From the IMG/VR virus record IMGVR_UViG_2698536506_000010: a DNA stretch of 43,693 bases; one strand, written 5' to 3'. The notes below the pieces were generated by a model. That model was not told the DNA's origin and did not search any database. It saw only the letters and a list, made by a program, of their open reading frames with translations. Positions 3,631 to 42,284 of this stretch are shown piece after piece; positions within the stretch are counted from its first letter, which is position 1; each line of letters starts with the position of its first letter. Position numbers and translations under genes: made by a program. The stretch comes from a virus (lineage: Duplodnaviria; Heunggongvirae; Uroviricota; Caudoviricetes).

Positions 3631-3918
3631 TCAGCAGTCCTTATGGTCATCCCACGGTCCGAATCCACCCACGTAAACGAAACCTCTCGATGGATCGCTC
3701 ACATGTGTTTCGCGCTGTAGTCGCTCAATTGAATTTCTGTCAATTGCCGCCTGGCGCATCTCAAGTGACTGATGACCTCTGCGACGACCATATTGCTTCC
3801 AATAGGCAGCGCAGGACTTACTGCAAAACTGTGCCCATCCTCTTTTTCGATCAGCAACGCGGGCCATGAATTTGTCCGGGCAACACTTGCAGGTCACTTC
3901 AATGGTTTTCCCAGTCAT
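3631..3918 (-). CDS. Small cysteine-rich (zinc-finger-like) protein between bet and exo (95 aa)
   Basis: CKCCPDK...CSKSC cysteine cluster; ATG at 3918 overlaps the bet stop and the ORF ends 1 nt before the exo start. Confidence 0.5.
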
Positions 3919-4760
3919 GCTGCCGCCTTAGCTTTTTTCTGAAGGAAGTTGAAACCTTTCTGTGCCTCTTCTTCAGTGAGGTCTGACGCCTCAAGAATTG
4001 GCCGTTTGAAGATGTCGCTGCACACTGGGAGGAAGTCTTGCTCCCAGTCTTTATTCAGCGATGTTAAGAGATCGGTTATCGCCTGAAGCGTTTCTTCACT
4101 TGCAGCTGGTGGAAGCGTTTCTGTGGTGTTGCGCGGCGCGACGTCTCTGATATCTACGTCCAGTGATTTGCCTTCCATTTCTTCGGCGGTAGGCTGCTGT
4201 CCAATCTCAGGCCATGCCTTACGCAACGCCTGGGCTTCCGCGCATTTCGCCAGCTGTCCGTATGGGCGCTTTTTCCACATCGCGTTCGGCGCCGTGGTGT
4301 CGCGGCCGCCGGTGGCATAGTTCTCAATCCAGTATTCTTTGGCGCTGAACTCGACGATCTCTCCACTGGGCATGCGCTTGTAGACGGTGTATTTGCACCA
4401 CTGAGGGAAAGTCACTTCGACACCAGTAAGCGTCTGAGTAACGTCAGGGCCGAACTCTGGTTCGCGGGCGCCGGCATAATCGCCGGAACGATCTGCCTGA
4501 ATACGGTAAAGCCCGATTCCCGGCATGACCACGTCGCGCCAGTCGCCTTTACCTGTTTTCGAGTCTTTGACGTACATCGGAACAAGGTGGACAGGTTTGA
4601 GCAACGGGTCGAGCTGGCGGGCGCGGCAGTAATCAAGCGCCATCATTACCGATTCGTCTTTGGCGCCAGGGTAGATGCTGTTCTTCAGTGCACTCCAGGT
4701 GGAGACGTCGACGCCTATCTCCTGAAGCGACTTCGCTGTGATTGTTAATTCGTTTGCCAT
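3915..4760 (-). CDS. bet: Bet/RecT-family single-strand annealing recombinase (Red-beta-like C-terminus)
   Basis: C-terminal region (LQAITDLLTSLNKDWEQDFLPVCSDIFKRPILEASDLTEEEAQKGFNFLQKKA) closely matches lambda Bet; gam-bet-exo order; start at ATG 4760 with GAGGGG RBS (track start at 4775 is TTG). Confidence 0.8.
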   Translation of the reverse strand: MANELTITAKSLQEIGVDVSTWSALKNSIYPGAKDESVMMALDYCRARQLDPLLKPVHLVPMYVKDSKTGKGDWRDVVMPGIGLYRIQADRSGDYAGAREPEFGPDVTQTLTGVEVTFPQWCKYTVYKRMPSGEIVEFSAKEYWIENYATGGRDTTAPNAMWKKRPYGQLAKCAEAQALRKAWPEIGQQPTAEEMEGKSLDVDIRDVAPRNTTETLPPAASEETLQAITDLLTSLNKDWEQDFLPVCSDIFKRPILEASDLTEEEAQKGFNFLQKKAKAAA

Positions 4761-17606: not shown

Positions 17607-18114
17607 GAAGAGTGGCGCGGCCGGGATCGTTTGTTCAGTGGCTACAATTATCGCAATCGTGATGAATGCGGGCCATGTCAGGACTAACGAGCGCGGGCTG
17701 GAGTTAATCGGCAACGCTGAATCTTGCCGACGTGATCCGTATGTGTGCCCGGCAGGTGTGCTTACTGACGGAATGGGTAATACGCATGGCGTAAAGCTCG
17801 GAACCGTTAAGTCTGACCAGCAGATCGCAGCCGAGTGGGAGCGCAACATCCTTGATGCTGAGTTCTGTGTTAACCGCTACGGGAATGGCAGAAAGCTATC
17901 TGACAATACTTTCTCGGCAGCTGTATCGGTAACGTTTCGTGCTGGCTGCGGAAACATGCGCACCTCCACGATGTTCTCTCTTCTCAGAAGTGGGGATATC
18001 ACGGCGGCATGCAACCAGTTCCCTCGCTGGGTATGGGGGGGAGGCAAGGTTCTGCCTGGTCTGGTTACTCGTGCCGGAAAAGAAGAAGCGCTCTGCCTGG
18101 ACGGTGTGAAATGA
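17584..18114 (+). CDS. Endolysin, lysozyme type with putative N-terminal SAR (signal-anchor-release) segment
   Basis: Gly/Ala-rich hydrophobic N-terminus ([20 protein letters not shown]) followed by lysozyme-like E...C/D...T region; GTG start overlapping the holin end. Confidence 0.75.
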
Positions 18115-18572
18115 GCCGGTTAACAGCAATCATCTGTGCTTTCGTTATATGTCTGCTGGTCTCCATGGACTGGGCGATTAACCATTACCGCGAAAACGCC
18201 ATCACCTACAAAGAACAGCGCGATAAAGCCACTGAGAAACTCAGCCTGGCTAACGCCACCATAAAAGACATGCAGACCCGCCAGCGAGAGGTGGCTGCAC
18301 TGGATGCCAAATACACCGGAGAACTGGCTGATGCGAAAGAAACCATTGAGCGTCTGCATAGCGATGTCATTGCTGGCCGTAAGCGGCTGCAGCTCAACGC
18401 AAACTGTCCCGCGAACGGAACGGCCGGCGCCAGCAGCATGGGCGATGCTTCCGGCCCCCGACTTACTGACTCCGCTGAACGGGATTATTTCACCCTCAGA
18501 GAGCGAATCGTCACAGTGACGAAGCAGGTCGGCTATCTGCAGGACTACATCAAAGAGCAATGTATTGAGTGA
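18111..18572 (+). CDS. Rz: Rz i-spanin
   Basis: Strong similarity to lambda Rz ([16 protein letters not shown]..., [31 protein letters not shown]); ATGA overlap with the endolysin. Confidence 0.9.
18331..18519 (+). CDS. Rz1: Rz1 o-spanin lipoprotein, embedded in Rz in the +1 frame
   Basis: Lipobox LLAVSGC, Pro-rich, C-terminal [11 protein letters not shown] as in lambda Rz1. Confidence 0.8.
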
Positions 18573-28671: not shown

Positions 28672-29051
28672 CGCCTGCCATGTATGAGCGCGTGCGTAAC
28701 TACTTCGTTGATGCCGGGCTTACCACTGGCTTCATTGTTCAGTTGCTGGCATGGGACGACACAAAGAAGCTAACCGATGCATTCATAGTTTTCCGGCCCA
28801 ACGGCGGGTCGAACATCCGTAACGACCTTGGCGCCGATCACTATGTATTGGTAGATATCATCTCCGCCAAGGACAAACGCCGCGCGGCAGCAGAGAAGGC
28901 TCAGGAAATCATCAATTATGTCGAACAGAACGACATTGCCGACGAGTGCCTTGGTCTGATTCAAAACCTCGGCAATATGCCTGCACCCATCCTGACCGAA
29001 GAGGGGCGCCTGGTCTTCAGACTCCAGTTCATGTGCGTTTACGGCGAATAA
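28668..29051 (+). CDS. Putative tail terminator / minor tail protein (127 aa)
   Basis: Overlaps the upstream stop; immediately precedes the major tail protein gene. Confidence 0.4.
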   Translation: MTPAMYERVRNYFVDAGLTTGFIVQLLAWDDTKKLTDAFIVFRPNGGSNIRNDLGADHYVLVDIISAKDKRRAAAEKAQEIINYVEQNDIADECLGLIQNLGNMPAPILTEEGRLVFRLQFMCVYGE

Positions 29052-29070
29052 CCCAATCACCAACCCATCA

Positions 29071-29096
29071 GGCTGCCATCCGGCGGCCTTTTTTAT
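29071..29096 (+). terminator. Rho-independent terminator or attenuator
   Basis: GGCTGCC-atcc-GGCGGCC hairpin (one G-U pair) followed by TTTTTTATTT. Confidence 0.45.
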
Positions 29097-29109
29097 TTGA
29101 GAGGTACAC

Positions 29110-29865
29110 ATGCAAGGCTGTGCTAATGATTTTGGCAAGCTGATCGGGAAAGTAGCTGTGCTACGCATGGCCTTTGGCTGCCCCGACGCAGTGCCAGCGC
29201 TTTCTGAGTGGAAGCGTCTCGGCGCTATGACGACCAAGGGTATCGACTATTCGATGAACACCATTAACTCCGAAGCTGATGATGCTAAAGGGCTGGTGGA
29301 AAACTTGGTCAACAACATGGATCTGACGATCTCCGGTGAAGGGGAGTTCCGCAAATCTGATAAAGATAACGAGATCGGCGCGTGGCGTCTGTCGAAGTAC
29401 ATCTTTGACGAAGTTCAGGCAGGCCGTCAGCCTAACCTGTGGGTGCGTTTCGACTTCGCTGGTGAGAACGCCGGTACTTACATCCAGGGTTACATGAACA
29501 CAACGTCATGGTCTGGTGATTTCGGAACCAACGATATCTCCACGTTCTCCGGCGAGTGGAAGGTATATGACGCCGACACCGTTGTGTTTGAAGTCGCTGA
29601 TTCCATCGCGGCCACTGGCGTCGAAGTTACCCCTGCAACTGCTTCCCTGGTCGTTGGCGCAACCCAGCAGCTGAGCGGCGCAGTTCAGCCAACCGATGCG
29701 ACTAACAAGGCGATCACCTGGACGACTTCGGCGGCCTCTATCGCCACTGTCAGCTCAACCGGCCTGGTAACGGCCGTCTCCGCCGGCACCGCGACTATTA
29801 CGGCTACCACTGCTGACGGTGACTTCACCGATACCTGCGCTGTTACCGTGACAGCCGCGCCGTAA
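29110..29865 (+). CDS. Major tail protein with C-terminal Ig-like (Big_2-type) domain
   Basis: C-terminal TATGVEVTPATASLVVGATQQL...ITWTTSAASIATVSSTGLVTAVSAGTATITATTADGDFTDTCAVTV is a classic Big_2 pattern; located before chaperone and tape measure. Confidence 0.7.
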   Translation: MQGCANDFGKLIGKVAVLRMAFGCPDAVPALSEWKRLGAMTTKGIDYSMNTINSEADDAKGLVENLVNNMDLTISGEGEFRKSDKDNEIGAWRLSKYIFDEVQAGRQPNLWVRFDFAGENAGTYIQGYMNTTSWSGDFGTNDISTFSGEWKVYDADTVVFEVADSIAATGVEVTPATASLVVGATQQLSGAVQPTDATNKAITWTTSAASIATVSSTGLVTAVSAGTATITATTADGDFTDTCAVTVTAAP

Positions 29866-29915
29866 TCACTACAAAGGGCGGCGTGCTGCCCTTGATACTG
29901 GTTATGGAGAACGAT

Positions 29916-30659
29916 ATGACACCCTTGAAAGAGATTGGCGAGTGCATGATTGGTGCTGGAGAGCGGGAATATTTCTTCCGGCCATCGTTCCGTAACATGA
30001 CGCGGATCGGTGAACCAGAGCATATCGTCCGCACTTTCTACGCGCTGTTCAATGACGACGTGGCGAAGATGCTTGAGGCGGCGCGCGAAATTCACAGTGC
30101 GATACCAGAGCATCAGCGCAGATTTTACGCCCACTATATCGGTGACGTTTCGCTGCCACGCTGGGCACTTGATGCAGCAGGCTCTGCCGCGTTTGTGCGT
30201 GAGGCATTACTCTCGGCTATTAACGTCATTCAGTCCTGCTGTGAAGAGGAAGTTTCAGAGCTGACAGGCTGGCATGAGCCATCACGCACTGGACGGCGCA
30301 CATTCGTATGGCACCGCGGCGCGCTTCCGCCTGAGAACCTTATTCTGATAGCGCAGTCGCTGATCATGCATGGTGTTATCGGCAGGGCCAAGGTTCGTAA
30401 ATTGCAGAAGCACGAAAGCAAGGAAACGACGCCGGAGTTTCACGCGACTGAATACATCATGGCGGCGAGAAACCATTTCGGGATCAGCAGGGAAGAGGCT
30501 GAAAACCTTACCATGACCGAATTCGCCATGATGCTTAACGCCAAATACCCTGACCAGAAAGGCTTCACCAGGGAAGAGTACGACGCTGTTATGGACGATG
30601 ACGATCGCCGCTGGCAGGAAATGGTTGAGCGCGAAAAATCAGCAAAAAAAGCGGCCTGA
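29916..30659 (+). CDS. Putative tail assembly chaperone (247 aa)
   Basis: Between major tail and tape-measure genes; start could also be ATG 29904. Confidence 0.45.
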   Translation: MTPLKEIGECMIGAGEREYFFRPSFRNMTRIGEPEHIVRTFYALFNDDVAKMLEAAREIHSAIPEHQRRFYAHYIGDVSLPRWALDAAGSAAFVREALLSAINVIQSCCEEEVSELTGWHEPSRTGRRTFVWHRGALPPENLILIAQSLIMHGVIGRAKVRKLQKHESKETTPEFHATEYIMAARNHFGISREEAENLTMTEFAMMLNAKYPDQKGFTREEYDAVMDDDDRRWQEMVEREKSAKKAA

Positions 30660-30731
30660 GTTAATAATGAATGTACCGTAATCGCCTGACCGGGCGTAAT
30701 ATGGCTCGACAATAAAACTCAGGGGATAAGA

Positions 30732-31106
30732 GTGAAGAAAATACTTTTGGCTTTGGCTATTCCGCTGGCTCTGGCTGGCTGCAAGCCGGGTGAAGAAAAG
30801 GCAATTTCTTTGGCGCAATCAGAAGTTTCAGCAAACCTGCTTGATCCAAGCAGTGCGCAATTCCGCAACGTGAAAGTTGCAAAAATGATGGATGCTGACG
30901 AGGGCCGGGTCTTTGCTGTAGTTTGCGGGGAAATTAACGGCAAGAACGGTTTTGGGGCCTATGCAGGGTTTCATCCATTCTTCGTTGAGCTCAAAATGAA
31001 ATCGAAGGGGATGTTCTCAAAAGGTGTCGACTACACCCTTGGTGATCACTTCCTCAGCTCGAAAGATACGCCACCACCGCCGGCCTACATCGAACGATGC
31101 CAATAA
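30732..31106 (+). CDS. Lipoprotein moron inside the tail gene cluster (124 aa)
   Basis: Signal peptide with lipobox (MKKILLALAIPLALAGC); GTG start with AGGGGA RBS; own terminator. Confidence 0.55.
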   Translation: MKKILLALAIPLALAGCKPGEEKAISLAQSEVSANLLDPSSAQFRNVKVAKMMDADEGRVFAVVCGEINGKNGFGAYAGFHPFFVELKMKSKGMFSKGVDYTLGDHFLSSKDTPPPPAYIERCQ

Positions 31107-31122
31107 ACGACACGAATAACAA

Positions 31123-31147
31123 ACCCACCAACCGGTGGGTTTTTTTA
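31123..31147 (+). terminator. Rho-independent terminator after the lipoprotein gene
   Basis: CCCACC-aacc-GGTGGG hairpin followed by TTTTTTT. Confidence 0.6.
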
Positions 31148-31163
31148 TGCCCGGAGAAAACTG

Positions 31164-33467
31164 ATGTCTGAGAAAGCAGGCGAGATTTATTACGACATCG
31201 AGGCCGATGTATCTGGCTTGCTCAAGGCCCAGGGAAAGGCTAATAAGTCGCTCGACTCCATCGGCAACTCGGCGACCAATGCAGCCAAAAAGATGGATGA
31301 GTTGCAGACGAACATCAACCGCGTCGCCGGGGCAATTGCCGCCTCACTCGTTGTTGACTGGGGTAAGGCGTTTCTCGTAGCTGCTGACAACATGAGCCAG
31401 CTCAACGCGCGTATAGAGAGGCTCACTGGTAGCGCAGCGACAGCCTCGCAGACTATGCAGAATCTGATGCGCATCAGTTCGGCAACGGGTGGTTCGCTAC
31501 AGGATACAGCAAAGCTGTGGGAGACTCTCAGCACGGCGTTGCGCGATACCGGAGCGACCAACGGCCAGATAATCCAGCTTACCGAAACACTTCAGAAAAT
31601 AGGTCGCATTGGCGGATCCTCGACAGAAGAAATGGCGAATGCTCTTCGTCAGTTCGGCCAGTCAATTTCATCAGGTACTGTCCGGGCGGAGGAGTTCAAC
31701 TCCATCCTTGAGCAAATGCCGGAACTGGCGCGCCAGATTGCCGCCGGGATGGGTGTAAGCATCGGAGAGCTTCGTCAGCTCATGCTGGACGGGAAACTGA
31801 CGGCAGAAGATGCTCTCAACGCCATTCAGAAGCAAACCGGCTCAGTGAATGCAGAGTTCGAGAAACTCCCGCGCACGCTTTCACAGGCTAATACCGCGCT
31901 GACAAACTCATTCCTGTCGATGATTGACTCTGTTAACCAGGCGACTGGAGCAAGCACAGGGCTGGTTGCGGTTATCGATTCAATGACTGCTGCACTCGAC
32001 CGGCTGGTGGGTAAAGCGGCGTCGGCAGATGCTCAGATATCGGATCTGAACAGCACCGCTGAAATGTTTACCCGCCGCGCGCGCACCTGGTCATGGCTTG
32101 GGCTTGATGGTTGGGAGGCGCAAAACAAAGCGCTGGCCGGGCTGAGTAATAAAGCCGCCATGCTGGTTGGCGACCTGGCCGCTGTTTCCAAAGCATCGCA
32201 GACCGCGGCTAACACAAAGCCGATCGAGATTAAAACGACCGCCTCAGCTACTGGCGGCAAAGCGAAAGGCGGAAAGTCTGCTGCACAGAAAGAAGCTGAG
32301 CAATACGCTAAAGCGCAGGACTCGATAAACGAAAAATTGGAAGCCCTGAGACAAGAATCTATTCTTGCAGCAGGTTCAACCAGCGAATTAACCCGTGAGC
32401 AGCAACTACTAAGGGCAGAGATGTCTCTTGGTGCCGATGCAACGGATGAACAGCGACAGAAGGCAAGAGAGTACAAAGCACAGGCTTTGGATACTGCTGA
32501 AGCATTGAAAAAGCAAGCCCAGGCAGAAAGAGATAAGCAAGCTGCGCAGTCCAACTTCAGCAGCCTACAAAGCCAAGCTTCTCCTGTGGCTAGCGTTGAA
32601 AGCCAGTTTCAGCAGCAGATTGAGCAACTCAACCAGTACGCTGCGCTCTATCCTCAGAAAATAGCTGAGGTAGAGGCTGTAAGGGCTAGCATTGAGGAGC
32701 AATATCGCCAAAAAAGACTCGATGCTCAGTGGCAAGAATTAAGTCAAATGAATATCGGCTTCGGCATGCTAACGAGTGCCGTGGATGCCTTTGGCGGAAA
32801 CGCATCAAACGTCATAACTGGACTGATCACAGGAACGATGTCAGCTCAGGATGCTATGCGCTCACTCGGTAACACGATGCTGAATAGCGTGGTAAATGCG
32901 CTAGTCCAGGTTGGGGTTGAGGCTCTCAAAAACTTCATTATCGGTCAGACATTGGGCGCAGCAGCTACTGCTGCTGGAGCATCTCAGGCTGCAATCTTGG
33001 CTACAGCTTGGGCTCCTGCCGCCGCCATGGCTAGCCTCGCTTCATTTGGGGCCAACTCAGTTCCTGCCATGACAGGAATTGCTTCAACGGTAGGCCTGGC
33101 ACAGGGCCTTGCTTTAACCGGTATGCGTTACAATGGCGGCCCGGTGAATGCAGGAGGTCTTTATCAGGTCGGTGAGCGAGGGAAACCTGAGATTTACCAG
33201 GCCAGTACCGGTAAGCAGTACATGATACCGGGCGACAACGGCAGGGTGATCAGCAATAAGGACATGACTTCGGGTGGAGGGGGCGGTGCTCCGATTCTCA
33301 ACATCTACAACTACTCATCCGCGTCTGTAGATGCTCAGGCTACACAGAACGGTGATGGTTCATGGACGCTTGAAGCTTTTATAGCTGACATGAATAACGG
33401 CGGCCCGGCAAGCAACGCCATTACCAGCAACATGAACGTTAAACGCACGCCAAGAGGGCAGGGCTGA
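31164..33467 (+). CDS. Tail tape measure protein (767 aa)
   Basis: Long Ala/Gln-rich alpha-helical protein at the expected tail position; lambda gpH-like N-terminal region (GELRQLMLDGKLTAEDALNAIQKQTG). Confidence 0.85.
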   Translation: MSEKAGEIYYDIEADVSGLLKAQGKANKSLDSIGNSATNAAKKMDELQTNINRVAGAIAASLVVDWGKAFLVAADNMSQLNARIERLTGSAATASQTMQNLMRISSATGGSLQDTAKLWETLSTALRDTGATNGQIIQLTETLQKIGRIGGSSTEEMANALRQFGQSISSGTVRAEEFNSILEQMPELARQIAAGMGVSIGELRQLMLDGKLTAEDALNAIQKQTGSVNAEFEKLPRTLSQANTALTNSFLSMIDSVNQATGASTGLVAVIDSMTAALDRLVGKAASADAQISDLNSTAEMFTRRARTWSWLGLDGWEAQNKALAGLSNKAAMLVGDLAAVSKASQTAANTKPIEIKTTASATGGKAKGGKSAAQKEAEQYAKAQDSINEKLEALRQESILAAGSTSELTREQQLLRAEMSLGADATDEQRQKAREYKAQALDTAEALKKQAQAERDKQAAQSNFSSLQSQASPVASVESQFQQQIEQLNQYAALYPQKIAEVEAVRASIEEQYRQKRLDAQWQELSQMNIGFGMLTSAVDAFGGNASNVITGLITGTMSAQDAMRSLGNTMLNSVVNALVQVGVEALKNFIIGQTLGAAATAAGASQAAILATAWAPAAAMASLASFGANSVPAMTGIASTVGLAQGLALTGMRYNGGPVNAGGLYQVGERGKPEIYQASTGKQYMIPGDNGRVISNKDMTSGGGGGAPILNIYNYSSASVDAQATQNGDGSWTLEAFIADMNNGGPASNAITSNMNVKRTPRGQG

Positions 33468-33964: not shown

Positions 33965-34434
33965 TGCCTTCATATCGTGAATATAATCAGAAGCGCCCGA
34001 TTAGCGGCTGTTACAACACCATCACGTTCTATCACCCCTCCTTTGGTTACGTCCGCCTCGTCGACAAACAGTTCTTCCCGAAGACGCTTGGCGGCCAGAC
34101 GTACACGCCTGCGCGGTTTGAAATCGAAGAGAGCCAGCAGAGCGGAACTCCGGTAATCGACGCAACGGTGAAGCTTGGGCGACTGTCTTCAGATATCAAA
34201 ACGCTGATGAAGAAGTGGAGTGGTGTTTCCAGGCTGTCGCCTATCACGGCAACTCGTCAGGTTTTCGATAGAGTTGATACCTCTACGCCAATGAAGAATT
34301 GGACATTATTTGTAAAAACTGTCGATGTTGTTTCAGATAACGCATCAGTTACTTTATCAATGACAAACCCGCTAAATAACAACATTGGCCAACCATATGA
34401 TCCAGTCGAATACACGGGGCTTCAGTACCTCTGA
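33964..34434 (+). CDS. Minor tail protein (lambda gpL position) (156 aa)
   Basis: Start overlaps the upstream stop. Confidence 0.45.
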   Translation: MPSYREYNQKRPISGCYNTITFYHPSFGYVRLVDKQFFPKTLGGQTYTPARFEIEESQQSGTPVIDATVKLGRLSSDIKTLMKKWSGVSRLSPITATRQVFDRVDTSTPMKNWTLFVKTVDVVSDNASVTLSMTNPLNNNIGQPYDPVEYTGLQYL

Positions 34435-34447
34435 TTTTATCAGCAGG

Positions 34448-34813
34448 ATGATCGGCGTGCCGTGGTCTAACCGCGCCTGCTCATTCGAAAAGACTGATTG
34501 CTGGGGGCTGGTTGTGCTGTATTACCGACATGTGCTCGACATTGAGCTGCACCAGACGCCGGGTTACGAAGCCGGGGAGGATTTCTTCACCTGCTATCAG
34601 GGAGACGTCGTTTTCTGGCGCAAGGTCGATAAACCGGTCGACGGGGGGATATTTGTCGGGTACCGCGGCGCGCAACCGGCGCACGTTGGCCTGGTACTGA
34701 ACCGGCAGGCGCTGCACTCGCGTGGAGAGAACGGAAGCGTGCGCATGGACTCGTTGCTGGTCATTCAGCGGGCATTCACCAAAGTGGAGTTTTTCGAATA
34801 TGGCGCTGGTTGA
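34448..34813 (+). CDS. NlpC/P60-family tail protein (lambda gpK-like) (121 aa)
   Basis: Candidate catalytic Cys (TDCWGLV) and His (PAHVGLV) in NlpC/P60-like spacing; gpK position. Confidence 0.5.
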   Translation: MIGVPWSNRACSFEKTDCWGLVVLYYRHVLDIELHQTPGYEAGEDFFTCYQGDVVFWRKVDKPVDGGIFVGYRGAQPAHVGLVLNRQALHSRGENGSVRMDSLLVIQRAFTKVEFFEYGAG

Positions 34814-37334: not shown

Positions 37335-39311
37335 ATGGCTACGACACCTACCAACCTGTCAGTACCGAGCGAGTCCCCCCGCGATCTGAAATTTAACGCA
37401 GGGAAAATTGATGAATTTGTGACATCGCTGGCACTTCAGTACATTGATCGCTTTGGCAATGCTCATTACACCATCGAAGGCCTGCGCTGGATGGCGCAGC
37501 AGGCTATTTCCCAGTATGGGTGGGTTCCGATCGGAACATTCCAGGATGGTGCAACATTAACTCTGCCTAACCAAATCCTGAAAGACACCACCGACGGTGA
37601 ATACTATCGCTGGGACGGTTCATTTTTGCCATCAGGGAAGGTTGTGCCAAATGGTTCTACGCCAGGATCAACAGGTGGGGTTGGTGTAGGTGCATGGATA
37701 AGTGTTGGTGATTCGGCATTGCGCTCAATGCTTGCTTCTGAGCAAGGAGTTTCCATGGTTGGCGGCATTGCCATGGAGCTCGACTCTCAGGCCGATTTGG
37801 CAACAAACACAACTGTTCAGGGACGGCTGGTGGCAGTAAAGAACACTGTCGGTAGTTACAATAAATACTCCATAATTCCAAACTCTGGTGTGCTTGGCGA
37901 TGGCGATGTAATCATCGACAGGGTGGATGGATTGCAGGCAGAGCTTCAGATTGAAGGGGTTCTGGATGTACGGGCTTTTGCAAAGTCTGGTAGGACAGAC
38001 CAACAAATAATTCAGGCGGAATTAGATTACGCTGGATCTAAATCAGGTCATTGGGTTGTTGGCTTGACGGCCAAAGATAAAACCGGAACACCATGGAGAT
38101 TCAGCACACTTAACGTACCTGACAGCACTGTTTTTCAGGGGCATGGTGGCGCTCTTAAGCTAAATGACAATGTCTGTGTCGATGCTTCAGTTAGCTATTA
38201 CTTGCTGCATAACATAAACGGCAATGATGTATGGCTGGACGGGTTATATATCGATGGCAATATGAGCAATAACTCCTTGTTCACCGTTGCTGATCTTGTA
38301 ACCCTCATCGGAGAAGGGTCAAAAATCACCAATTGCACCCTTATGAATGCCCCCGACTCTGGTCTAATGTTCTCAGGTGTAAAGAATGGTCTAGCGTCTG
38401 CAAACACCATCGGCAATGGCAGAGATGTTGCTATCTATGCAAATGCAAGCGCAGACGGCAGCGCAAGGAACAATGTGTTATCTGACAATGTTCTGTACGG
38501 ATTCCCGGCAGGAGGAATAGGATTTAAACGTTATTTTGCTGATTGTGTAGCCAGCGGGAACGCAATTTATCTCTGTGGAAACGGCGTGACATTTGAGGAC
38601 TTTACTGTTGAGACCGAAGGTAAATTCCCCAAAAGGATTACGCTGTCTGGTACTTTTATGCGAGACATCGGCTTTCCACACCGCGCCACTGCTAACGTAG
38701 CAGAGCGAGGAATTAGCATTCAGCGTGCCTCTGATATCAGCATCACTGGTCTTCAGACAGTTAACGTTTCTGGCAATATATTATACATTGGAAATGGCAC
38801 AGATATCTGCGTTGATAACGCCATGCTTAGAGGTTATGTTGCAAGTCCACAAAGCAACGGAAATAACGGAGTGCTAGTCGTTAATGCCCAAGGAGGGCAC
38901 CTGAGTAATGTGAATGTTACCGCAGTGGCAAGCAGGGCAGGATATTTCCAGACCGTTAATGGCATGTCCGTTCGTGGCGGAAGATGGGTCAGTTCAGGGA
39001 CTCAGTCTGGCATCAGGGTAGATGCTACCGCTCAATTTTCAATATTTAATCCTGACTATATTTCTGGTGGATCTGGAGCTGACGAAGAGTGGTTTGAAGG
39101 AGCAACAGGGATATCGAACGGATACATCCGGGCTAATGCAACAGGCCCAGGCAGATACGGAATAAGAGAGCTTTCTGCTGGGCAGGGCACTAACCCAAAT
39201 ACAAGGCTTATCCCCAGATTTATTGGAGAGAAATGCGTTACCTTGTCAGATAGCGCAATCTGGATGGCAAAAGGTATGTCTAACTCTGATTGGGTTAAGT
39301 TATCTAACTGA
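37335..39311 (+). CDS. Tailspike / receptor-binding protein with beta-helix polysaccharide depolymerase-like domain (658 aa)
   Basis: Gly/Asn/Ser/Val-rich repeats (NAIYLCGNG, ITGLQTVNVSGNILYIGNG, NGNNGVLVVNAQGG) typical of right-handed beta-helix tailspikes; lower GC in the C-terminal two-thirds. Confidence 0.65.
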   Translation: MATTPTNLSVPSESPRDLKFNAGKIDEFVTSLALQYIDRFGNAHYTIEGLRWMAQQAISQYGWVPIGTFQDGATLTLPNQILKDTTDGEYYRWDGSFLPSGKVVPNGSTPGSTGGVGVGAWISVGDSALRSMLASEQGVSMVGGIAMELDSQADLATNTTVQGRLVAVKNTVGSYNKYSIIPNSGVLGDGDVIIDRVDGLQAELQIEGVLDVRAFAKSGRTDQQIIQAELDYAGSKSGHWVVGLTAKDKTGTPWRFSTLNVPDSTVFQGHGGALKLNDNVCVDASVSYYLLHNINGNDVWLDGLYIDGNMSNNSLFTVADLVTLIGEGSKITNCTLMNAPDSGLMFSGVKNGLASANTIGNGRDVAIYANASADGSARNNVLSDNVLYGFPAGGIGFKRYFADCVASGNAIYLCGNGVTFEDFTVETEGKFPKRITLSGTFMRDIGFPHRATANVAERGISIQRASDISITGLQTVNVSGNILYIGNGTDICVDNAMLRGYVASPQSNGNNGVLVVNAQGGHLSNVNVTAVASRAGYFQTVNGMSVRGGRWVSSGTQSGIRVDATAQFSIFNPDYISGGSGADEEWFEGATGISNGYIRANATGPGRYGIRELSAGQGTNPNTRLIPRFIGEKCVTLSDSAIWMAKGMSNSDWVKLSN

Positions 39312-40572
39312 AGTCAGGCCGCTGATGCGGCCTTTTCTCTGATAAAAACTGATTTATTAACTGCATAGTGTAAATAAGCATTAATACTTGAAAAACGAAA
39401 AGTACTCTCTTGCCTGAGCCATATGCTGAAGGCGAGAACATAATCATCATCACTGACGCACACGCCAGGAGAATGGTGAAACAACTGTAAAATGCATCAT
39501 TTTTACACCTGGCATTAAAAACTGCGAGGCATATCATTGAACTAATTGTCAGTAGAGTCACTGCGTGAGATATGTAAACAGTAGTTCCAGCCCAATTACT
39601 TCCTGATAGATAATTAGAGTTTACCATTCCTTTGAATATATTCGCCCCAAGGAGAAAAGATAAGAACATTATTAATTTTACGGCTACAATCGCAGCCGAA
39701 ATTGATGGCAGGACTTTAAAATCTTTTCTTTTCACATAGAGTAACAACAAAGTAAGCATAGCGATATTGATTAGTACGTTGCCAGAAGATGATACGTGAC
39801 TGCTTAAGACATCCACACCTATTGATAGTTTTTGAAAGATGCCATAGCTAACGTAATCTGGAAGCCAGTTTTTTGACTCACTAAAATATCTTAACTTATT
39901 ACCGGGAGCAGAAAAAAGAATAATGGCGCAAGCAATAGTTGTAACGAACATTGCGGCTATGATTGGAGTTATCCTTTTGAGATAGATAGCTCTGCATGCT
40001 AGAAATATCAAGAAGCAGATAGATATCTGTTCGTTGAACCCAAAGTACATAGCAGGTAAAACAGAGAGTGACTTAAGTATAATATTTAATGATTTCTCGT
40101 TAAGTACTGCATAAACAGACAGTAGGCAAAGAGTTGCTGGCATTAGATAGTTATATGACCCTGCGATCCACCATGATGCATCCGCATTAACTTCAGGTTC
40201 TATTAAGAAAAACATAAATAAAGAAACTGTGAAAGGAATCATCGCTCCTTGCTTTTCTCGAAGAGTTATCTTACTTATAATAAAAGATATCAAAATAACA
40301 CATGCTGGTATGAAAGTTTTCCAAAAGTATTCATAACGTATTGTATAGACCATGAGAGCATCTATAGTTAATCTCCCACTCCATTTTATATATCTGTCAT
40401 ATATAACATCATATACATTAGAGTTTAAAAGCAAGCGTGAGAAATTTAAATCATCTCCTGAGTGACGCAAGGATAAACCAGAAAAAAGAAATGCAATAAT
40501 AGCGATAATAAGCATGGCGGCAGTGACTTTTATGGCCACTATCATTTTATTTGCATTGGTAATGGATTTCAT
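39304..40572 (-). CDS. Polytopic membrane protein, putative serotype-specific component of the O-antigen modification operon (422 aa)
   Basis: Many predicted transmembrane segments, very AT-rich, last gene of the gtrA-gtrB operon; overlaps the upstream ORF by 26 nt in another frame. Confidence 0.5.
   Translation of the reverse strand: MKSITNANKMIVAIKVTAAMLIIAIIAFLFSGLSLRHSGDDLNFSRLLLNSNVYDVIYDRYIKWSGRLTIDALMVYTIRYEYFWKTFIPACVILISFIISKITLREKQGAMIPFTVSLFMFFLIEPEVNADASWWIAGSYNYLMPATLCLLSVYAVLNEKSLNIILKSLSVLPAMYFGFNEQISICFLIFLACRAIYLKRITPIIAAMFVTTIACAIILFSAPGNKLRYFSESKNWLPDYVSYGIFQKLSIGVDVLSSHVSSSGNVLINIAMLTLLLLYVKRKDFKVLPSISAAIVAVKLIMFLSFLLGANIFKGMVNSNYLSGSNWAGTTVYISHAVTLLTISSMICLAVFNARCKNDAFYSCFTILLACASVMMIMFSPSAYGSGKRVLFVFQVLMLIYTMQLINQFLSEKRPHQRPDFS
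39316..39340 (+). terminator. Rho-independent terminator after the tailspike gene
   Basis: AGGCCGC-tgat-GCGGCCT hairpin followed by TTTCTCT. Confidence 0.5.
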
Positions 40573-41011
40573 AATTATGGAGTCCGTCGTTAATCAATAT
40601 AGCAATATTGCCAGTGAATTTTTTAACCTTTTTGTTTCTTACTTGAGAGTTAAACCCAGAGCGATCATAAAGCAATGGTTTTCCAAAAGCTCGACTTACA
40701 TCACTTCTTCTGGTCATTGACTTGGGTATGCGCAACCATTTATCTCCGCCTATGCCAGCATAGATATTAACACTATAAAGTGTTTGCAAATTGTAGTTTT
40801 TTACTGCTGCCCAACCATTAACTACAAGTCTGCCGTCCTCAACCCGGCATCTATCTATATGATATATAATTCCTGAACTTGTTTTAGCATTGTCAAATTT
40901 AAATGTCGAAACGTCTGCTTTGTTAATATAAAAATAAAAGCCAGCAGGCAACATAATAGATGTTACAAACAATCCGACAAGTAATGTTTTTACAGGTAGT
41001 GAGACCTTCAT
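40547..41011 (-). CDS. Membrane-anchored protein (154 aa), possible N-terminal part or partner of the serotype-specific component
   Basis: N-terminal transmembrane helix then soluble domain; ATG overlaps the gtrB stop. Confidence 0.4.
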
Positions 41012-41925
41012 CCTTTCCTCTTCAAAATATATCTAGGACGGCTCTTTACTTCGGTGTAAATTCTTCCGATGTACTCACCAAGCACCCCGATACCAATCAA
41101 TTGGACTCCACCAAGGAAAAGGATAGAAACAAGAAGTGACGGGTAGCCCCGCACTGCGTTACCAAAAGCAAGGGTATCAACTATCATCCATGAGCCATAG
41201 AGGAGCGCCACGCCTGCAACCAGAAGGCCGATGTAAGTCCACATGCGAAGCGGGAAAGTAGAGAAACTCGTGATACCCTCAAGTGCCAGGTTCCACAACT
41301 TCCAGCCGTTAAATTTCGTACTTCCTGCGACGCGTTCTGCGCGGGCATATTCAACGACATCTGTACGGCCGCCAACCCAGCTCAATACGCCCTTCATGAA
41401 CAGGTTGCGCTCTGGCATGAGCTTAATGTTTTCCACCACCTCGCGGGACATAAGGCGGAAGTCACCAACGTTTTCTTCAATCTTCGGGTTGCTGATTTTG
41501 TTGTGCAGCTTATAGAACCATTCAGCGGTCTTGCGCTTCAGTCTGCCATCTGTAGAGCGATCAGAGCGTTTAGCGAGAACCATATCAGCACCGGCCTGCC
41601 ATTTCTCGATAAGGTGAGGAATGACTTCGATAGGGTCCTGCAAGTCTACGTCAATCGGGATAATTGCTTCACCGGTCGCGTGGTCAAGGCCGGCGAACAG
41701 GGCTGGTTCTTTCCCAAAGTTACGAGTAAATGACAATGGAACAACAAGCGTATCGGCAACAGCAAGCGCGTTAATAATTGATTCTGTCGCGTCTTTGCTG
41801 CCGTCATTGATGAATACTATCTCGACTTCATGCTGCTGAAGGCCTTCAAATTCCCGAACCGTTTTATAAAAAATCGGTATCGCGTCTTCTTCGTTGAAGA
41901 CGGGAACGACCAGAGAAATTTTCAT
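41008..41925 (-). CDS. gtrB: GtrB-like bactoprenol glucosyltransferase (GT2 family)
   Basis: GT2 hallmarks ([25 protein letters not shown]), C-terminal transmembrane helices, length about 305 aa; coupled to gtrA. Confidence 0.85.
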
Positions 41926-42284
41926 TTCGCATCCCTAAAGACAATAAACTTAGAATAGAAAAAGCCACATACAAGACTAATGGCGGAGAACGCCACCAGT
42001 GTGACGATTGGCGGTAAGCCACACCTGTCAGCAGCCCAACCTACAGCAGCACTCAGCGTTCCCATAAACCCAACGTAAAGCATGTAACGCAGCGTGGAAG
42101 TGGATGCTTTAAAAGTGAAGCGTGCGTTAGCGTAGAAACTAAAGCTGACGGCTACCACGAAACCTGCAAAGTTAGCCAATGCCTGACTTGTGGATAGGCC
42201 ATACACGCAAACACCAAACACGACCCAGTGAATGAGTGTGTTCAGTACGCCAATCGATGTGTACTTAGCAAAAAGTTTTAACAT
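41922..42284 (-). CDS. gtrA: GtrA-like flippase for bactoprenol-linked glucose
   Basis: About 120 aa, four predicted transmembrane helices, begins [20 protein letters not shown] as in GtrA-family proteins; first gene of the operon. Confidence 0.8.

Follow-up and report, generated by a model that had tools for sequence, protein, structure and literature searches.

A lipoprotein moron in the tail operon of a temperate Enterobacter siphophage represents a large, unnamed family with a plausible role in superinfection exclusion

Results

The lipoprotein gene and its neighbours

The window, by which we mean the whole 43,693-nucleotide stretch of DNA that was analysed (IMG/VR virus record IMGVR_UViG_2698536506_000010), is a temperate lambdoid-style siphophage of Enterobacter and related genera. 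It carries a Q-like antiterminator, holin, endolysin, Rz/Rz1, terminase, head and tail genes and a tail spike, after which gtr-type O-antigen conversion genes follow on the opposite strand. In the tail region, the gene for a major tail protein with a Big_2 domain (29110..29865) precedes the gene for a 258-aa DUF6246/phrog_791 protein (29883..30659, + strand), which occupies the position of a tail assembly chaperone. Further downstream, the same strand encodes a 767-aa tape measure protein (TMP) of the PF20155 type (31164..33467). These two genes form the left and right flanks of a slot, and they confirm the original prediction that placed a lipoprotein gene between tail chaperone and tape-measure genes.

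The lipoprotein gene in this slot (30732..31106, + strand) encodes 124 aa from a GTG start, and its product has the N-terminus MKKILLALAIPLALAGCKPGEEK. A Shine–Dalgarno sequence, GGGGA (30722..30726, + strand), stands 5 nt before the GTG. The start codon is conserved at all 67 related loci in our alignment, and at 58 of the 67 it is preceded by an identical 15-mer that includes the Shine–Dalgarno sequence. Read from the sequence, residues 1–16 form a signal peptide followed by a Cys17 predicted to be lipid-modified (30732..30782, + strand), laid out as a charged MKK, a hydrophobic core and an L-A-G-C lipobox with Cys17 as its cysteine. The lipobox pattern [LVI][ASTVI][GAS]C is found near the N-terminus and is conserved in the homologues, and the Pfam lipobox model LPAM_1 scores 18 bits against the 124-aa protein, slightly below its cut-off of 20. 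Both the predicted 124-aa lipoprotein, with its signal peptide and lipobox, and the predicted ribosome-binding site and GTG start of its own are borne out by these features.

In E. coli, lipoproteins with Lys rather than Asp at position +2, directly after the lipidated Cys, are sorted to the outer membrane by the Lol pathway. The window protein has Lys at this position, so the E. coli rule predicts outer-membrane sorting. Judged from these signals, the likeliest anchoring site of the protein, ~108 aa long in its mature form, is the inner leaflet of the outer membrane.

A protein search returns 68 clusters at 80–99% identity, nearly all of them 124 aa long, with Enterobacter, Klebsiella aerogenes, E. 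coli, Salmonella, Citrobacter and others as hosts, and the exact 124-aa protein is recorded in 151 assembly-collection blocks. Among 50 distinct alleles, whose mean dS is ~0.6, dN/dS comes to 0.07, which is similar to the values for the flanking genes (0.045 for the chaperone-like gene and 0.094 for the TMP N-terminus). The open reading frame is a real gene under purifying selection and not a chance ORF. Rfam gives sub-threshold matches only in this region, and these fall on the terminator described below; with no match above threshold, we dropped the reading of the region as a known RNA.

An accessory cassette with filled, empty and alternative slots

We surveyed 80 IMG/VR loci whose DUF6246 protein is 91–100% identical to that of the window, and asked what lies between the DUF6246 gene and the TMP gene at each of them. 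The lipoprotein gene is present in ~58 of the ~80 surveyed prophages, the slot is empty (46–61 bp) in 12, and another envelope-targeted cargo fills it in 8. At 2 loci this cargo encodes a 97-aa protein whose N-terminus forms a transmembrane helix; at the other 6, an AT-rich gene specifies a 119-aa protein that bears a Sec signal peptide. The 119-aa protein aligns to the lipoprotein with an hhalign probability of 66% (E = 5.5e-5) and matches phrog_2320 weakly (E = 0.005), and at this level of similarity the two proteins seem to be very distantly related.

The edges of the cassette emerge from a gapped alignment with the empty-slot loci L060, L076, L085 and L088, in which homology stops at 30665/30666 and restarts at 31114/31115. 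The accessory cassette so delimited (30667..31113, + strand; ~448 bp) consists of a 65-bp leader, the ORF and 7 bp past the stop codon. Its GC content is 0.48–0.49, a modest dip compared with ~0.55 in both flanks. The 12 empty-slot relatives have TMP N-termini that are 92–98% identical, and in CobraSix, an Enterobacter phage further removed from the window, the TMP gene begins 12 bp after the chaperone-like gene, with no cassette between them.

Following Juhala and Hendrix, a moron is extra DNA that is missing at the same site in close relatives (PMC3594210). The cassette displays just such a presence/absence polymorphism at an identical site, with alternative cargo in some relatives, and its base composition departs, if modestly, from that of its neighbours. 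Its status as a moron, which had been proposed from the window alone, is therefore solid. The slot, moreover, equals that of HK97 gene 15, the archetypal moron, which lies between the tail assembly chaperone and TMP genes (PMC3594210).

A conserved position between chaperone and TMP genes in many phages, together with strong purifying selection, is also what one would expect of a core tail-assembly or virion component that is no moron. However, the gene is absent from 12 close relatives and from CobraSix and is swapped for unrelated cargo elsewhere, so it is dispensable for making tails. Moreover, its lipoprotein signal peptide exports the protein from the cytoplasm, the site of tail assembly, which rules out a role in that process. 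We consider a core component highly improbable.

A backbone terminator and a candidate promoter element

An intrinsic-terminator-like hairpin with a T-run (31121..31146, + strand) lies before the ribosome-binding site of the TMP gene and outside the cassette. The hairpin proper (31121–31142) has a folding energy of −14.7 kcal/mol (z = −2.1), and it is kept in empty-slot loci as well as behind the alternative cargos. Since relatives with an empty slot retain it, the terminator is an element of the phage backbone and not the gene's own. The cassette therefore lacks one further mark of a moron, a terminator of its own, and the claim that the gene comes with its own strong terminator falls. The backbone terminator could, for its part, serve as the end point of a transcript that begins inside the cassette.

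Further marks of a moron are a promoter of its own and expression from the repressed prophage. A scan of positions 29000–32000 for consensus sigma-70 promoters found none, and the consensus promoter scan of the alternative cargos was uninformative. The leader of the cassette contains a candidate −10 element, TAATAT (30697..30702, + strand), which reads TATGAT in other alleles and has no matching −35. In an alignment of 31 distinct cassette leaders, a TAnnAT hexamer is conserved. With no consensus promoter and only this hexamer, the gene is perhaps transcribed solely with the late operon.

Transcription of this kind would be expected of a late lytic helper, a protein made by Q-antiterminated transcription of the tail operon only and acting in the dying cell rather than in the lysogen, either to prevent progeny from ejecting their DNA on envelope debris or to modify the envelope before lysis. 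The orientation of the gene with the late operon, the lack of a consensus promoter and the backbone terminator downstream are consistent with such a helper. So, if homologous, would be genes of A. baumannii prophages that are annotated as "putative lipoprotein", stand immediately before the TMP gene and are induced by mitomycin C as strongly as their tail neighbours (PMC3978071). Against a late helper, the gene is dispensable in 12 of ~80 close relatives, the TAnnAT hexamer is conserved in the cassette leader, and other family members are found in repressor operons or in prophage-end slots of P2-like phages, as described below. We regard an exclusively late role as rather improbable.

Motifs, predicted fold and size of the family

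The mature domain contains two motifs, DPSSAQFRN and VCGEINGKNGFGAYAGF, and the alignment reveals an invariant core of D38, P39, S41, F44, C65, G66, N72, G75, Y77, G79 and F83. A C-terminal Cys (Cys123) is conserved in most aligned relatives. Together, the conserved Cys65 and the usual C-terminal Cys suggest a periplasmic disulfide, and a Cys65–Cys123 bond probably stabilises the domain.

AlphaFold2, supplied with the family alignment, returned a confident model (pLDDT 83, pTM 0.74) in which a helix is followed by four antiparallel strands and a second helix at the C-terminus. An N-terminal helix on a 4–5-stranded antiparallel sheet, the arrangement that we took to define cystatin/NTF2-like folds, is present in this model, and the lipoprotein is accordingly predicted to adopt a generic cystatin/NTF2-like α+β fold. 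It has no functional residues in common with cystatins. Foldseek searches against the PDB and viral models were uninformative and gave no specific match to a known exclusion protein.

Sequence searches of Pfam, NCBIfam, PADLOC and the PDB with the protein and 55 aligned relatives revealed nothing past the lipobox. LPAM_1 is the sole Pfam model at E ≤ 1, and no defence model in PADLOC-DB matches at E ≤ 1. The best family match is phrog_2320 (E = 4.8e-32, aa 1–102), whose function is unannotated; it represents the same family, which has thus already been seen in phage genomes. When 1.84 billion representatives of clusters drawn at 50% identity are searched with the family profile, 13,329 clusters match at E ≤ 1e-3, of which 6,045 reach E ≤ 1e-10. 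Of 78 family members taken from other genomes, at least 57 have a lipobox, and most of the remainder show either a Sec signal or a membrane anchor at the N-terminus. The lipoprotein family is very large and unnamed, and it has neither a Pfam or NCBIfam model nor a characterised member.

Genomic positions of family members

We inspected nine contexts gene by gene, and all nine are phage or prophage-remnant. In the P2-like SEN4/SEN5 and in a K. oxytoca prophage, the family member sits between ogr and the end of the prophage (the ogr-att slot). A Rhizorhabdus prophage encodes its member between a DUF6441 gene and a gene for a 1008-aa protein that is a putative TMP, while a Caulobacter prophage has its member directly 3′ of a CI-like S24 repressor. 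In a metagenomic phage the member follows a gene for an HTH regulator, and one family member lies in a head module. The Hendrixvirinae phages Fraca and LMessi each place a member between tail genes K and I. In the phage-plasmid Cyrano, a distant homologue makes up the N-terminal part of a 266-aa lipoprotein (CYRAN_115), and in a Trabulsiella prophage remnant the member adjoins a YafO toxin gene.

We then considered a neighbourhood sample of 80 GTDB species-representative loci from Alpha-, Beta- and Gammaproteobacteria. At 10 or more of ~74 loci, the family member is co-oriented with, and directly 5′ of, a gene for a Pfam-confirmed TMP, and these TMPs belong to different families (TMP_2 with Tape_meas_lam_C, or TMP_3). 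Nine of the confirmed cases lie outside Enterobacter (in Rosenbergiella, Brevundimonas, Caulobacter, Acinetobacter and Pseudomonas); the lineage of the window itself and a single, weak case from the Betaproteobacteria come in addition. Random placement would give ~1.5 such adjacencies as against the at least 10 observed (P ~2e-6), an estimate that comes from a rough model with ~50 prophage genes. The site before the TMP gene may be a mere permissive hot spot for insertion.

A second recurrent position is directly 3′ of an S24 CI-like repressor on the same strand, which we find at 6 of 77 species-representative loci, again across Alpha-, Beta- and Gammaproteobacteria. The gaps here run from −22 to +30 nt, which implies operons. 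Other 5′ neighbours are Mor activators (4), gpT/TAC chaperones (4) and Ogr (2). Repressor operons and prophage-end slots of P2-like phages are typical of expression in lysogeny. From this family context, superinfection exclusion is a plausible function. One weakly negative observation concerns the distant Cyrano homologue, which does not appear in the list of highly expressed genes for the lysogen of LF82 (PMC9928086).

A minority of family members adjoin ordinary chromosomal genes, so in the wider family the domain need not be directed at phages. Alternatively, the window protein might be a periplasmic or outer-membrane lipoprotein that raises host fitness, that is, an agent of lysogenic conversion apart from phage defence. 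It could confer Bor-like serum resistance or envelope robustness, or provide inhibition of, or immunity to, an exogenous hydrolase, a bacteriocin or a T6SS effector. The contexts inspected gene by gene, nine out of nine phage or prophage-remnant, argue against this, as does the fact that the strongest recurrent positions adjoin repressor and TMP genes; the fold match, being generic and without shared cystatin functional residues, does not point to such an activity either. On balance, conversion of this kind is unlikely, though it deserves to be kept in mind.

Pairing with receptor-binding proteins

The original prediction suggested that the lipoprotein might block a receptor used by related phages. 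We compared the lipoprotein allele with the TMP, the J protein and the tail spike across the surveyed loci for signs of covariation. Phages that encode one and the same 124-aa protein differ in the size of their tail spike (654, 704 or 752 aa) and in TMP length. Lipoprotein alleles that are 82–99% identical are found with J-like proteins of 55–100% identity, near-identical lipoproteins co-occur with wholly different spike C-termini, and the same J types also appear at loci whose slot is empty or holds alternative cargo. Beyond physical linkage, no pairing of the allele with TMP, J or tail spike was detected in these loci. With the same allele found alongside unrelated tail-spike C-termini and divergent J proteins, the idea of a receptor block is not supported.

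Masking of a receptor in the manner of Cor or Llp would require the lipoprotein to bind the periplasmic face of an outer-membrane receptor and so block adsorption or triggering. A predicted outer-membrane lipoprotein encoded in a tail module is consistent with this, and there are precedents in Cor (PMC3594210) and in Lpp021 and Lpp010 (PMC11893012). Yet the lipoprotein does not covary with the receptor-binding proteins, its matches to Cor and Lpp010 are limited to the signal peptide, and a huge family with a class-wide invariant core is unlike the narrow, receptor-matched families of those precedents. In addition, the tail spike and the gtr genes of the window suggest that the O-antigen is the primary receptor, which again speaks against masking. 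We find this explanation improbable. The lack of covariation with receptor-binding proteins and the class-wide invariant core point instead to a conserved target rather than a variable receptor, a pattern that favours a block after adsorption over receptor masking.

Discussion

Comparison with known envelope and exclusion proteins

In kind, an envelope lipoprotein that a moron contributes to a tail operon is familiar, and the closest parallel in position is HK97 gene 15. Its product is a small inner-membrane protein that is expressed from the prophage and stops genome entry by HK97 and its relatives while leaving the receptor untouched, the block being dependent on the tail region of the incoming phage (PMC3594210). 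The two systems share the slot, the temperate siphophage background, a small envelope-targeted accessory protein that is missing from close relatives, and the proposed logic of a tail-dependent block to entry without a block to the receptor. They differ in the protein itself, since gp15 is a YebO-like inner-membrane protein, whereas the window encodes a 124-aa lipoprotein with a predicted folded periplasmic domain; Pfam gave no YebO match, so by this search it is not a member of the gp15/YebO family. Exclusion and prophage expression have been demonstrated for gp15, whereas here we infer both, as we do the membrane location of the lipoprotein and the step at which exclusion would act.

Several phage lipoproteins offer a second set of parallels. 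Cor is a lipoprotein from the tail cluster that excludes cognate phages (PMC3594210). Like the window protein, Cor (phi80, N15, HK022 and mEp167) and Llp of T5 are phage lipoproteins encoded in or near tail genes that act at the envelope, but they are ~60–80 aa long and paired with FhuA and a receptor-binding protein, a pairing that the window lipoprotein does not show. The Cor family, phrog_1119, matches at E = 0.015 over aa 1–23 alone, which is the signal peptide, and no family annotated as Llp is among the PHROG matches. In the mEpimmI phages, experiments have shown that Lpp021 and Lpp010 exclude cognate phages, and the type of lipoprotein tracks the type of receptor (PMC11893012). They too are lipoproteins encoded among the structural genes of temperate siphophages; however, they are 72–82 aa long, are encoded on the opposite strand after J, and correlate in type with OmpA or LamB. 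Kinship to mEp021 gp81 and mEp010 gp116 was rejected, as these are unrelated small proteins and hhalign aligns the lipobox region alone.

Two further prophage lipoproteins, neither of them from a tail module, illustrate what such proteins can do. Ltp of the Streptococcus thermophilus phage TP-J34 is a prophage lipoprotein that stops DNA injection by way of the incoming TMP. It can be likened to our proposal by mechanism, but it comes from a Gram-positive host, consists of an unrelated helical repeat and is encoded in the lysogeny module. Bor of lambda, a prophage outer-membrane lipoprotein moron of ~100 aa encoded near the lysis genes, confers serum resistance; it is a similar kind of object, but has no sequence match to the window lipoprotein. 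An o-spanin of the Rz1 type, a short Pro-rich lipoprotein whose gene lies inside or beside the i-spanin gene of the lysis cassette, was also considered and rejected, because the phage has its Rz/Rz1 pair elsewhere, 12 kb away (Rz at 18009–18572, with Rz1 embedded at 18304–18519), and because the gene encodes a predicted folded domain.

In the comparisons made here, the lipoprotein family stands apart from Cor, Llp-like proteins, the mEpimmI Lpp proteins, gp15/YebO, Bor and spanins. Its size, its fold, the breadth of the family and the lack of pairing with receptor-binding proteins distinguish it from the exclusion lipoproteins already described.

A proposed role after adsorption

The wiring of family members to repressors and P2 slots, the envelope targeting of the protein and the envelope-directed cargo in sister slots make protection of the lysogen the most economical reading. 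We tentatively favour, as the leading candidate but with less than even confidence, a periplasmic block after adsorption that would protect the lysogen at the stage of tail-tip penetration or DNA delivery. In this proposal, Sec would export the prolipoprotein, a lipid would be attached at Cys17, and a short tether would hold the compact cystatin/NTF2-like domain in the periplasm. From there, the lipoprotein would guard the lysogen, and also the late-infected cell, from incoming phage at the envelope. An incoming phage would be halted once adsorbed, its tail-tip penetration of the periplasm or its DNA delivery being disturbed, with no masking of any one receptor.

A bolder extension, which we offer as a long shot, is that the domain defined by DPSSAQFRN and VCGEINGKNGFGAY might represent a widespread and hitherto unrecognised class of periplasmic inhibitors of siphophage envelope penetration, built on a cystatin scaffold. 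The TMP would be one candidate target of such an inhibitor, and a cell-wall hydrolase of the tail tip, such as the NlpC/P60 protein encoded at 34385–34813, would be another. An inhibitor of this sort would explain the repeated placement of family members beside diverse TMP genes or under repressor control.

Significance

By acting at the envelope, prophage morons influence which phages are able to infect clinical strains of Enterobacter, Klebsiella aerogenes, E. coli and Salmonella, and thereby bear on phage therapy. For the specialist, the interest lies less in the single gene than in the family, which is large, unnamed, rich in motifs and recurrently placed, its telling positions being the slot before the TMP gene and the operon of a CI-like repressor. 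Proof of a block to phage entry by a single member would give a function to very many "hypothetical lipoproteins", and an entry block, if true, would furnish a new probe for the periplasmic step of tail penetration. Were no phage phenotype to appear, the protein would still be a widespread lysogenic-conversion lipoprotein that deserves a name.

The junction that carries the tail-module lipoprotein (window 30732-31106, +) lies between the gene at the tail-chaperone position (29883-30659, +) and the tape measure protein (TMP) gene. That position, normally the site of G/GT frameshifted tail chaperones, is held here by a single 258-aa DUF6246 protein, a putative chaperone by its position. In sister prophages, other cargo occupies the same slot. 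One alternative, 97 aa long, has a transmembrane helix at its N-terminus (L074 4850-5143; also L089); the other is a 119-aa Sec-signal protein encoded by an AT-rich gene (L075 about 3799-4164; also L078, L079, L081, L082, and L083). From profile alignment, the 119-aa cargo is probably a very distant homologue of the tail-module lipoprotein (hhalign E = 5.5e-5).

An intrinsic-terminator-like hairpin (31121-31146, +) sits inside the tail operon, directly 5′ of the TMP ribosome-binding site. This hairpin, present in loci L060, L076, L085, and L050 as well as in the window, is retained even when the slot is empty, and it may serve to insulate the slot or to fix the proportion of tail-tube genes to TMP. 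A second terminator-like hairpin (29070-29089, +) is located within the late operon, just 5′ of the major tail protein gene.

Genes annotated "putative lipoprotein" also lie directly 5′ of the TMP genes in the Acinetobacter baumannii ATCC 17978 prophages CP9 and CP14 (A1S_3759 and A1S_3701), where mitomycin C induced them 4.4-fold and 3.0-fold, with similar values for neighbouring tail genes (PMC3978071, Table 4). The parallel with the window lipoprotein is one of annotation and of position before the TMP gene. Within the family itself, a member lies just 5′ of a 1008-aa gene, a putative TMP, in a Rhizorhabdus wittichii prophage (L091). Inserted within the structural module of the same prophage, on the opposite strand, is a toxin-antitoxin pair made up of a HigB-like toxin and an HTH antitoxin (L091 3694-4323).

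Family members also occur immediately 3′ of S24 (CI/LexA-like) repressor genes, in the same orientation and at distances of -22 to +30 nt. These loci (L200, L208, L211, L213, L224, and L258, with the member at about 6001 or elsewhere in the locus) come from Caulobacter, Comamonas, Arenimonas, Delftia, Brevundimonas, and Sphingomonas hosts.

Close relatives of the window phage carry HNH_3 homing-endonuclease genes at several sites in the head and tail modules, and an extra 71-75-aa ORF, absent from the window, directly 3′ of the TMP gene (jointly, L260 13630-14169, 14738-15205, and 12744-12971; L261 6448-6987; L262 6104-6595). The HNH_3 and post-TMP sites are further insertion hot spots of this phage backbone.

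The window encodes an Rz i-spanin (18009-18572, +) with an embedded, Pro-rich Rz1 o-spanin ORF (18304-18519, +; lipobox LAVSGC); a complete spanin pair is thus encoded apart from the tail-module lipoprotein. Directly after the tail-spike gene (37335-39311) lies a gtr-type O-antigen conversion module (39304-42284, -), in which GtrB (41008-41925, -) is flanked by ORFs whose sizes resemble those of GtrA and GtrC. The same prophage carries in it a second accessory module that modifies the envelope, beside the tail-module lipoprotein.
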